From an uncultured Chlamydiae bacterium (GTDB lineage Bacteria > Chlamydiota > Chlamydiia > Chlamydiales > Parachlamydiaceae), in contig CAVWGN010000001.1 in the NCBI GenBank assembly GCA_963754655.1, positions 2,368,001 through 2,432,000 on the forward strand: a DNA stretch of 64,000 nt. The letters are read 5' to 3'. Position numbers and translations under genes: made by a program. Of this stretch, positions 41,806 through 44,160 are shown in pieces. The notes below the pieces were generated by a model. That model saw only the letters and a list, made by a program, of their open reading frames with translations, made no database searches and had not been told where the DNA came from. How positions within the stretch are numbered: the first letter of the stretch is position 1; every line of letters starts with the position of its first letter.

Positions 41806-42387
41806 TTATTTTTTTAATGATCTACTAATAAATTCTGGGTCTAGTGATGGAGATTCAATATTGCTGTTTTCAATTTTTTTTAATATTTCACTCCAATGCT
41901 TCTCATTATTTTTATCTTTTTTTAACGCGTATATTGCTCTCATTAAACTTACACCATCTACATATAAATAGTCCTTTAAGGCAATTTCTAAATATTTAAT
42001 AGCCTCTTCATAAGATATAGGAGGCCTTCCAGGACAAAGAGAACAACTAGCTATAGCAATTAATAATTGTGGCGGTGGGTTTTTAGTTTTCGCTAAAGCT
42101 TTTAGAAGAGCTTCATATCTTTCATTATATTTTAGAATAATATCATAAGCAAGACCCAAAAAGGCGTCGTATTGCCAAGAGGAGGCCCATTCTTTTGGGT
42201 GAGAATTTTTAATAGCTTCTAAAAGCCTAACAGAAAATTCCTGAATATTCTCATCCCATTCTTTATTGTATAATAAAGAATAAACTAAATTAATACTTGT
42301 TAAGAATGGTAAATCCCTGACAATATCTTCAGGAGTAAAATTGGATGTTAATTCTTGCCACCTTTTTTCTTGAATAAGTTCATTCAT
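41806..42387 (-). CDS. Putative immunity protein of the upstream toxin
   Basis: Starts 19 bp after the toxin stop; homologous pseudogene at 51504..51815. Confidence 0.7.
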   Translation of the reverse strand: MNELIQEKRWQELTSNFTPEDIVRDLPFLTSINLVYSLLYNKEWDENIQEFSVRLLEAIKNSHPKEWASSWQYDAFLGLAYDIILKYNERYEALLKALAKTKNPPPQLLIAIASCSLCPGRPPISYEEAIKYLEIALKDYLYVDGVSLMRAIYALKKDKNNEKHWSEILKKIENSNIESPSLDPEFISRSLKK

Positions 42388-42405
42388 CTTCCTTTTCTCT
42401 CCTAT

Positions 42406-43527
42406 CTATTGATTAGTCACTACCCAAGCATCTTTTAAAAAAGTTTCTCCGGACTCCAAATGCGTTTCAAATACTGCGTATACATCATGACCATTTATTG
42501 TCTTTTGATAATCAGTTCGAATTATTTCAGGATTATCGCGTGGAAATTTTCTTGGCTTCCTTTTTATATTAACAGGATCTACAATTTTATTTTCCTCTAA
42601 AGCCAAAATAACTTTTTTAAAATCTTCTTCAACACTACCTGTCAACTCAGTTAATTTATTCCAAGCATGTTTAGGTTGCATAATATGAATTTGTGCATTT
42701 TTATTTCTAACAAGAATTTTACCTGTTTTAGCAGCATTCTGAACAATTGCTTCTCTTTTTGCTGCAAATTCAATACTTTTATCTATAATTTTTTTTTGAG
42801 CAGAATAAGATTCTGAACATCTTGCAAAAGTCAATCCTGCATTTGCACGTTTTAAAGCCTTAAATTTGGCAATACCTTTGATTACGCCGAGGGGAGCAAA
42901 GATTTCGACTCCATACTTGCCTATTATATAGCCAATCTGTTTGCCTTTTGAATAATCATCAACTTTATGCCAAGTTAAGGAAAGATCCTTTAGTTCTGGA
43001 ACGACACATTCTAAACATTCAATTGCATCATGAGTTGTAATGTATTCTCCAATAGCATAAGCAGCATCGATCATTTCTTGTCTCATATCAGATGGAGAAG
43101 AGGCAAAAGCCCAAAGTCCATAAAAAATGCCACGACAACAACTTAAAATAGCGGGGATTATTTCTTTTGCTGATTCATGAGTCCCAATTAAAGCCCCTTT
43201 AATTAAACCTTTAGCAAAATCCGCTTTATGTTTTGGAATATACCTCCCTCTTAATTTAGAATCTGCTTGCGATTTAAAAGGAGGAGCAAATTGCTTTGCT
43301 TTTTCATAATCTTTTAGAGCAAGCTTAATTTGATTGGTTTCAAAATAAGCTATTGCTCTTTCAAGATAAGCTTCTAGGTTAGAGTTGTTCAGTTTGATGG
43401 CTTGTGATAAAACTTCAATGGCTTTTTTATAAAGCAGCAAGCTATTCAAAATAGCACCTTGTTCTACTAATATCTCCGATTGAATTGAAAAAGCTCGCAC
43501 TACTGTGTTGATCTCAATGGTATCCAT
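42406..43527 (-). CDS. TPR-containing polymorphic toxin, C-terminal part with Ntox35-like tip
   Basis: TPR (AYLERAIAYFETNQIKLALKDYEKA), Gly-rich helices (FAKGLIKGALIG, GYIIGKYGVEIFAP), tip HIMQPKHAW...KTINGHDV...LKDAWV. Confidence 0.75.
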   Translation of the reverse strand: MDTIEINTVVRAFSIQSEILVEQGAILNSLLLYKKAIEVLSQAIKLNNSNLEAYLERAIAYFETNQIKLALKDYEKAKQFAPPFKSQADSKLRGRYIPKHKADFAKGLIKGALIGTHESAKEIIPAILSCCRGIFYGLWAFASSPSDMRQEMIDAAYAIGEYITTHDAIECLECVVPELKDLSLTWHKVDDYSKGKQIGYIIGKYGVEIFAPLGVIKGIAKFKALKRANAGLTFARCSESYSAQKKIIDKSIEFAAKREAIVQNAAKTGKILVRNKNAQIHIMQPKHAWNKLTELTGSVEEDFKKVILALEENKIVDPVNIKRKPRKFPRDNPEIIRTDYQKTINGHDVYAVFETHLESGETFLKDAWVVTNQ

Positions 43528-43531
43528 GAAA

Positions 43532-44160
43532 TCAAGAGACTCTGCAAATATTAATATTGATTGGGAAAGAGCCTTTTTTGTTAGAACTCTCTAATTCAAA
43601 AGAACAATCAGCTGTCTGAAAATTGTCCATGATGAATTCACTTACATCGTATGATTTGTTATCATAGTAAGGACTCATTGACATGTCGATAAAATCAAAA
43701 GAATTTTCAAGAGCTGAAATATCGCTTGCAAGAAGCTTCATGAACCTAATTTCTTGTTCGATGTCTAAGCTTGGATGCTTATCATGACAAGAGGAATAAA
43801 TAGAAAAAAACTTGGGATATAACGCCTCAATAATATCCTCAAGCCTATCTTTTATCTTAGCCGCTTCCCTTTCATTGTAATTTGATAAGGCATAGTATTC
43901 AATATCTTTACAAATGTGGTAGTAATCAGAGAATCGAAATTGTTGAGCAACAAATGAGATGGTTAAACCATGCTTGTTCAAGAACCACCCAGGATTCTCG
44001 ATAAATTTTTTTTGCTTCTCTTCATTTTCCAACAAGTTCGACAACGCTGTTGTGTTGATTAAATCTCTAAAAAGCAAATAAGCCTTATTGCTAATTTCTT
44101 CTGCCTTTGAAGAATATTCTGGCCAATAACAATGACATTGGGAATTTTGTTTGCAATATT
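43532..44160 (-). pseudogene. N-terminal part of the toxin gene, frameshifted and truncated by IS5
   Basis: Frame stays open from the IS end (EYCKQNSQCHCYWPEYSSKAEEISNKAYLLFRD...) and overlaps the open frame leading into 43527. Confidence 0.65.

Follow-up and report, generated by a model that had tools for sequence, protein, structure and literature searches.

A probable decaying polymorphic toxin gene with an Ntox35-like tip and a retained candidate immunity gene in an environmental chlamydial genome

The stretch of 64,000 nucleotides from an uncultured Parachlamydiaceae bacterium analysed here (contig CAVWGN010000001.1; hereafter the window, whose own numbering we use) carries three collinear minus-strand open reading frames (ORFs) of 181, 373 and 193 amino acids at 41806–44160 (Table 1). 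We read this locus as the decaying gene of a Sec-exported polymorphic toxin followed by its retained cognate immunity gene, both belonging to a family of environmental Chlamydiota, and assign this reading a probability of roughly 0.8. The toxin would have been exported through Sec and would have ended in an exchangeable C-terminal tip, with the next gene encoding an immunity protein specific to that tip. An insertion sequence (IS) of the IS5 family appears to have cost the gene its export signal, and a frameshift to have split it, which would leave the toxin dead. The immunity gene has been kept, most likely for protection against the same toxin from co-infecting relatives.

The gene belongs to a large family whose C-termini vary. 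A protein search with the 373-aa ORF (5.8 billion proteins) returned 56 relatives, many of 620–650 aa, and an exhaustive phmmer search of 1.84 billion representatives gave 794 matches at E ≤ 1e-10 and 167 at E ≤ 1e-30; the last figure shows that the features of the gene are not due to chance (the 6708 matches at E ≤ 1e-3 are a count inflated by TPR). Full-length relatives, of about 620–740 aa, share one order: a Sec-like signal peptide, a Cys-rich N-domain, a helical region, TPR, a Gly-rich trunk and the C-terminal tip. The trunk is a helical, Gly-rich domain of 175 residues with invariant glycines, is common to all tip classes, and ends in an LKRAN...R stretch after which the sequences diverge. 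A preliminary description of the locus, which had already recognized the TPR and the Gly-rich helices, had named variation of the C-termini among trunk homologues as a check to be made. Such variation is what we find. Among 190 stored relatives, 182 have the trunk; beyond it, 153 continue for 70 residues or more, and these 153 tails form seven clusters. The window type, Ntox35-like, accounts for 93 members (P0031 scores 22.6 bits against Pfam Ntox35, the best score in the family and under the cut-off) and Ntox50 for 50 (90.8 bits in P0045). The other clusters are an unnamed class of five members with no Pfam match, a second Ntox35-like class of two (P0165, 19.1 bits over profile positions 2–68), and single tails that match DUF6883 (84.4 bits), resemble colicin/pyocin DNase or LHH-like domains (24.3 bits, under cut-off) or carry a QAHHIF motif (no Pfam match). 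The window tip type is also found on other backbones, namely the many-TPR proteins P0131 and P0155.

The modules have diverged unevenly. Compared with a locus of the same genus (L003, whose contig is shared with L072), the toxin locus of the window is 65–68% identical in the N-domain, TPR and trunk, 42% in the tip and 34% in the immunity protein, and compared with the more distant L009 it is 58% identical in the tip against 34% in the N-domain. Mosaicism of this sort is characteristic of polymorphic toxins. A freshwater metagenome contig (run X2) shows about 92% identity over tip and immunity gene (window 41998–42794); upstream of 42794, close to the trunk–tip junction, identity falls under the 85% threshold. 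This drop is a faint hint of a cassette or recombination boundary near the junction, or of a chimeric contig.

The preliminary description had also inferred an immunity gene from the toxin-then-immunity order, and a comparison of loci bears this out. Within a set of 38 genome loci with a toxin tail of at least 70 residues, a 193-aa-type ORF lies directly downstream of all 14 Ntox35-like-tipped toxins (blastp E 6e-53 to 4e-24) and of none of the 21 Ntox50-tipped ones; in 17 of those 21 the toxin is instead followed by a distinct module, about 100 residues long and either single or in tandem. The ORFs downstream of the 14 Ntox35-like tips are 187–199 aa long, apart from one of 302 aa, and start between -21 and +12 nt from the toxin stop, so that toxin and immunity gene overlap in many loci. 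The window gene stands where it had been placed, at a spacing of 18 nt and not the 19 bp first given. The 302-aa ORF (L016:6074-6982), which is the sole link between the two immunity families, joins a 193-type domain to a C-terminal Ntox50-type immunity module; it represents a double immunity gene produced by fusion or else two genes read through as one.

The 193-aa protein is all-helical, with conserved W67 and W71 and a conserved C115-P-G-x-P-P loop. Pfam and NCBIfam hold no family for it, and a Pfam scan of nine downstream proteins of both immunity types likewise returned none. A profile search for the family retrieved 33 unnamed clusters, Waddlia chondrophila being the source of one, and a metagenome scan with the immunity profile found seven loci; against PDB sequences the profile found no solved relative, giving six chance-level matches (E 0.31–0.99). 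A faint relation (7.6%) links the protein to a 206-aa TPR-like gene of L066. When the tip and the 193-aa protein were modelled together, ipSAE values of 0.92, 0.91 and 0.92 were obtained, against 0.01 for the best of three controls; of 157 solved complexes, 116 attain the mark used for this score, as do 2 of 215 mismatched pairs. At least 91% of contacts recur between runs, and the pLDDT of the partner is at least 91. On the tip side the predicted interface comprises residues 22, 26, 29 and 31–33 (N277, H281, Q284 and K286–A288), and on the immunity side residues 116–122, in the conserved CPGxPP loop. The model thus supports occlusion of the active site, in which the 193-aa protein would cover the His motif and neutralize the tip by sitting over the H281/H287 site. 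Co-variation and predicted complex together support the 193-aa gene as the cognate candidate immunity gene.

The tip itself had been assigned to the predicted RNase family Ntox35 on the motifs HI..PKHAW and DAWV. Family members retain both motifs, as HIMQPKHAW and DAWV, and N277, H281, Q284, H287 and W289 do not vary in any of 28 tips. The codons for H281 and K286–H287 lie at 42667–42687, so that two histidines stand six residues apart in the N-terminal helix. In the accessible part of Zhang et al. 2012, Ntox35 is defined by 'H, KH' and two N-terminal histidines; in the S. aureus Ntox35, as presented in the accessible part of the preprint (bioRxiv 10.1101/2025.07.24.666436), the histidines H199 and H205 are six apart and the H205A exchange abolishes killing. 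A search of 300 genomes of the phylum with the Pfam model found one canonical Ntox35 (60.3 bits), which terminates another, different protein with a signal peptide (L064) and reads NHIKQPKHCWNKLV...ISNAWVK. An hhalign comparison of the tip-family alignment (A3) with this C-terminus gave a probability of 91.5% (E 8.7e-7, 80 columns), with the NxxH motif at one end of the aligned region and the final AWV at the other.

The L064 locus lies in another chlamydial genome (G150:C67), where the canonical tip ends a protein of 441 aa (ORF 1432-2757, minus strand) with a putative HINT-like '...LVHNN' motif. A 147-aa helical ORF (987-1430, minus strand) overlaps the toxin stop and is followed by a partial second copy (730-981, minus strand); the 147-aa protein has no detectable relation to the window 193-aa protein (hhalign 0.2%).

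The model of the window tip (pLDDT 86) has helices at 21–27 and 44–57 followed by a four-stranded sheet. The preliminary description had made a toxin-fold match of the tip a second check, and a structure search independent of Foldseek returned BECR RNase toxins: the CdiA-CT of K. pneumoniae 342 came first (Z 8.2, 98 residues, 3.0 Å), followed by BrnT (Z 6.6), colicin D (6.5), a Salmonella toxin–antitoxin (TA) toxin (6.2), RelE (5.5) and other CdiA-CT entries. Thirteen of the top 14 rows are entries for RNase toxins, TA systems or contact-dependent inhibition (CDI) systems, with the chains of complexes not distinguished, and the remaining one is a hypothetical protein. As the Z score is middling and Foldseek gave nothing significant, the fold assignment rests on the coherence of this structural list together with the sequence link to the canonical Ntox35. 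Taken together, these comparisons support the tip as a divergent domain of the Ntox35 clade ('Ntox35-like') with a BECR RNase fold, placed outside Pfam membership, and suggest RNase activity. The original assignment therefore holds for the clade, the H...KH motif and the modelled fold, and fails for membership of the Pfam family. Weak Pfam matches to AF_2299-like_N, the N-terminal domain of a CDP-alcohol phosphatidyltransferase, occur in 8 of the 28 A3 members (best E 8.8e-5); these members include trunk sequence, the tip-only piece of the window has no such match, and the matches are possibly compositional.

As assembled, the toxin gene occupies two frames, 43532–44160 and 42406–43527, in agreement with the frameshift first proposed. 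The 181-aa ORF is 63% identical to residues 93–220 of P0015 (E 1e-54) and 59% identical to residues 93–251 of P0005, and the 373-aa ORF aligns with residues 284–638 of P0005; because both align along the same full-length relative, they are pieces of one gene. Homology to full-length relatives begins precisely at the end of the 845-bp IS (LEYCKQNSQCHCYWPE...), which confirms the proposed 5' truncation by IS5, and about 100 N-terminal residues, the signal peptide included, are absent. The missing 5' part has no match elsewhere in the genome, although this region is poorly conserved and could escape detection. The IS lies only 128 nt from the next gene, so the 5' part has been deleted and not displaced. 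Frame A ends in a stop at 43532–43534, whereas the open stretch of frame B (394 aa) starts at about 43590, 21 codons ahead of its ATG, which places the shift at about 43535–43590, within a poorly conserved linker. The IS truncation stands independently of the frameshift. Judged from its sequence, the window toxin copy is a pseudogene, its toxin dead and its immunity gene kept intact, and the locus illustrates IS-driven decay in this genome. The IS carries two overlapping ORFs (Pfam DUF4096, IS4/5, and DDE_Tnp_1). The genome holds about 23 full copies of this element at 96–100% identity, plus fragments, which indicates a recent IS expansion.

Table 1. Features of the toxin locus and of the neighbouring cassettes and genes in the window.
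Feature	Position	Strand	Remarks
193-aa gene, intact candidate immunity gene	41806-42387	-	starts 18 nt past the stop of the 373-aa ORF
373-aa ORF	42406-43527	-	own ATG; TPR, trunk and tip
Toxin tip, divergent Ntox35-like domain, probable BECR RNase fold	42406-42741	-	residues 263-373 and stop
Gly-rich helical trunk domain	42742-43266	-	residues 88-262; ends in conserved LKRAN...R junction before tip
TPR region and start of 373-aa ORF	43267-43527	-	Pfam TPR_1 33.8 bits, TPR_11 29.3, TPR_2 28.1
181-aa ORF	43532-44077	-	frame remains open further upstream, to the IS boundary
Frame-overlap zone with frameshift, variable linker	43532-43590	-	frame A stop 43532-43534; frame B open
N-terminal domain remnant	43535-44160	-	second half of Cys-rich region and helical domain; homology to P0015, P0005
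IS5-family insertion sequence cutting the toxin gene	44161-45005	+	845 bp, perfect 23-bp inverted repeats
Orphan Ntox50-linked immunity gene, 118 aa	49350-49706	-	blastp to 18 downstream ORFs of Ntox50 loci, best E 4.9e-23
Truncated second 193-type immunity gene	51504-51809	-	profile A2 positions 2-90, E 3.2e-29; one internal TGA
Orphan trunk-less Ntox50 tip, 131 aa	51919-52314	+	Pfam Ntox50 52.8 bits, cut-off 22.2
Ntox50-type immunity gene, 98 aa	52311-52607	+	overlaps orphan tip stop; blastp to 13 Ntox50-linked ORFs, best E 5e-28
Fragmentary IS66-family transposase ORFs	53152-54026		just past the orphan Ntox50 cassette
658-aa ORF	37157-39133	-	no Pfam family
713-aa ORF	45134-47275	-	no Pfam family; Pro/Gln/Ala-rich repeat region (PEAQPPVQT...)
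425-aa ORF	47499-48776	+	no Pfam family
344-aa ORF	50112-51146	+	no Pfam family

Orphan and tandem immunity genes occur as well. The window cassettes at 49350–52607 lie on both strands, interspersed with other genes, and the fragment of a second 193-type immunity gene among them is closest to the immunity gene of L003 (64%). Elsewhere, one toxin is followed by two tandem 193-type immunity copies (L047), one tip on a fragment without the trunk motif, as judged by regular expression only, is followed by two immunity copies (L051), and one immunity gene is preceded by just a remnant of a toxin 3' end (L046). The genome of the window has a second degenerate locus of the toxin family (L055, G000:C1:255488-258844), with a 248-aa ORF (1429-2175) that combines a trunk remnant and an Ntox50 tip, and a 156-aa ORF (2172-2642) in which a partial Ntox50 tip is fused to an Ntox50-type immunity module. 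The four ORFs of 713, 425, 344 and 658 aa that stand among the toxin cassettes of the window may encode effectors or surface proteins.

Of 301 sampled Chlamydiota genomes, 111 carry the trunk, frequently in multiple copies, and the carriers span 76 of 165 genera. Large-genome lineages commonly have it, whereas a family with genomes of about 1 Mb (f4) yielded it in none of 30 genomes. The 43 loci of the genome collection are labelled Parachlamydiaceae, Waddliaceae, Rhabdochlamydiaceae and other Chlamydiota metagenome-assembled genomes, with a few labels from Verrucomicrobia or other groups. All 21 full-length homologues from genome loci begin with a charged and then hydrophobic N-terminus by a Kyte–Doolittle heuristic, and they have 3–11 cysteines in the first 150 residues. 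The trunk model is all-helical (pLDDT 81), with two moderately hydrophobic segments (19-residue Kyte–Doolittle means of 1.57 and 1.37), and fold searches with it gave no convincing neighbour (best Z 4.2, best Foldseek E 0.74). The candidates with Z of at most 4.2, a Cagbeta/CagZ entry, phage portal proteins and HCN channels, were not accepted as relatives, and neither was apolipophorin at the Foldseek E of 0.74. The trunk had been described as free of RHS, CdiA, LXG, MafB and PAAR features, and a Pfam scan of the window pieces and 18 homologues (among them the full-length P0008, P0057, P0045, P0051 and P0166) found none of these signature domains and, besides the tips, only TPR families. The trunk piece alone matched nothing in Pfam at E ≤ 10, and the three window ORFs had only weak TPR-type matches in NCBIfam. 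We regard the trunk as a candidate new translocation module, which would act in passage across a membrane.

Several observations speak against the reading of the locus as a toxin–immunity pair of this kind, or temper parts of it. The window tip scores 15.1 bits (E 0.037) against Pfam Ntox35 (PF15534), under the gathering cut-off of 23.6, in a match that spans positions 2–34 of 78, the first half of the profile only; across the family, 8 of 28 tips match at E ≤ 0.1 and 0 of 28 reach the cut-off. A Z score of 8.2 is about the typical best score of models that have no clear match. Foldseek found no match to the tip model at E ≤ 0.001, its weak rows comprising CdiA-CT Kp342 and HigB and otherwise designed sheets and PTP1B, and the tip profile had 0 matches among PDB sequences. 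The complex model was built from our own unpaired alignments, so that the calibration of its score is only rough, and signal peptides were called by the crude hydrophobicity heuristic. Public reads and contigs leave 43318–43737, including the frameshift zone, uncovered, and an assembly error there is possible. Finally, a self-protective antidote would be expected for a host-directed nuclease too, and an immunity gene is no proof of a bacterial target.

This last point bears on the foremost alternative, a host-directed effector, in which the RNase would cleave the RNA of the host after export to the inclusion or to the cytosol of the amoeba, with the partner serving solely as a self-protection antidote or an export chaperone and not as an immunity factor in warfare between bacteria. 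We consider it unlikely, though well ahead of the other alternatives. Such a role would suit the obligate intracellular symbiotic life of these organisms, the frequent binding of eukaryotic partners by TPR domains, and the distribution of the trunk, which was not found in the roughly 1-Mb genomes of family f4 and is common in large-genome lineages. Many toxin-like domains on TPR, Sel1 or ankyrin scaffolds in such bacteria act on the host, according to the accessible part of Zhang et al. 2012, which marks the host-directed versions by the absence of adjacent immunity genes; here the adjacent gene is constant and tip-specific. Immunity genes that stand alone, in tandem or as fragments, with no live toxin (L046, L047, L051 and window 49350–51809), fit defence against the toxins of others, and this genome keeps its immunity gene even though its own toxin is dead. 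The orphan and tandem genes and the retention of immunity after toxin loss favour a bacterial target over the host.

It is far less probable that the split and truncation are an assembly artefact or inconsequential, with the 373-aa ORF made from its own ATG and acting inside the cell. That ORF is intact and does start with ATG, the frameshift zone has no read coverage, and an A6 run lies in the linker. Against this stand the exact IS boundary with its perfect inverted repeats and the loss of some 100 N-terminal codons, and repair of the frameshift would still leave a gene without signal peptide. The 128-nt gap shows the 5' part to be deleted, and the genome has roughly 23 copies of this IS and other degraded cassettes.

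A type II TA addiction module of the RelE or BrnT type, fused to a long N-terminal protein, is marginally less credible still. Its attraction lies in the structural neighbours of the tip (BrnT Z 6.6; RelE 5.5 and 4.2; MqsR 4.8; a Salmonella TA complex 6.2) and in the two-gene arrangement with a partner predicted to neutralize, but the toxin ends a protein of 620–740 aa with a signal peptide, the order is toxin then neutralizer, the partner belongs to no DNA-binding family, and the same trunk bears DNase-like and other tips, which are features of polymorphic toxins and not of TA modules. A type III secretion system effector with its chaperone was set aside because of the Sec-like signal peptides in the homologues and the tip specificity of the partner.

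Returning to the decayed toxin with its retained immunity gene, the kind of system it represents is already known. Ntox35 and Ntox50 are tabulated for chlamydiae in the accessible part of Zhang et al. 2012, which counts TPR among the repeats of Sec-dependent toxins, gives '-' as the immunity family for both Ntox35 and Ntox50 in its tables, and calls immunity-linked polymorphic toxins in endosymbionts 'relatively rare'; König et al. 2019 merely mention that Protochlamydia encodes polymorphic toxin domains. Full-text literature searches, which largely leave subscription journals uncovered, found no description of the trunk family or of the immunity families. As far as the accessible sources go, chlamydial polymorphic toxins of the Ntox35/Ntox50 kind are thus already known, and the trunk family and the immunity families seem to be undescribed.

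A broader proposal, which we advance tentatively and at somewhat less than even odds, is that an undescribed phylum-wide scaffold, consisting of Sec signal, Cys-rich domain, TPR and Gly-rich helical trunk, carries at least seven interchangeable tips with their own unannotated immunity families and serves to fight relatives that share the host cell or inclusion. The trunk would be a novel module for membrane translocation, while anchorage of the toxin to the disulfide-linked chlamydial envelope would fall to the Cys-rich domain. Polymorphic toxins have mostly been studied in free-living or extracellular bacteria, and here the scaffold is found in about a third of the sampled chlamydial genomes. 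The tip-matched immunity genes and orphan cassettes point to frequent warfare among intracellular bacteria in shared hosts such as amoebae. Candidate immunity families are now available for Ntox35 and Ntox50, for which the tables of Zhang et al. 2012, in their accessible part, list none, and the tip and immunity gene of the window form a compact, intact pair testable in E. coli.

Among known systems, the type II TA modules differ from the window pair in that their toxin is a small stand-alone protein with a DNA-binding antitoxin that is usually encoded upstream; the partner here lies downstream and has no DNA-binding family. The CdiA-CT tRNase of Klebsiella pneumoniae 342 (PDB 6cp9) and the colicin D tRNase (5znm, 1tfk; Z 6.5 and 4.9) are closer, being BECR-type RNase toxins with a tightly bound immunity protein, to which the window pair may be likened. 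The likeness is one of modelled fold; sequence identity to them is 7–12%, and their CdiB/CdiA two-partner secretion or colicin import has no counterpart here.

The Ntox35 toxins themselves, such as the Neisseria MafB-type NGMG_00731 (in the accessible part of Zhang et al. 2012) and the S. aureus S8-BetaH-Ntox35, are Sec-dependent polymorphic toxins with the toxin at the C-terminus, as the window protein would have been. They share with the window tip the N-terminal-helix histidines six apart and the KH pair, and a downstream immunity gene whose product is predicted to cover the histidines. The accessible part of the S. aureus preprint reports a resemblance to BrnT, which the window tip model likewise shows. 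The window tip differs from the family in scoring under the Pfam cut-off, from the canonical chlamydial Ntox35 in a middle section about 30 residues longer and in an unrelated neighbouring immunity family, and from Ntox35 toxins generally in a trunk without MafB-N, RHS, HINT or BetaH/S8 peptidase domains. In overall build the closest counterparts are the TPR/Sel1 polymorphic toxins of intracellular bacteria that depend on Sec and the type II secretion system (Zhang et al. 2012, in the part accessible). The Gly-rich trunk and the chlamydial family are not described in that part, and both groups combine a signal peptide, repeats and a C-terminal toxin.

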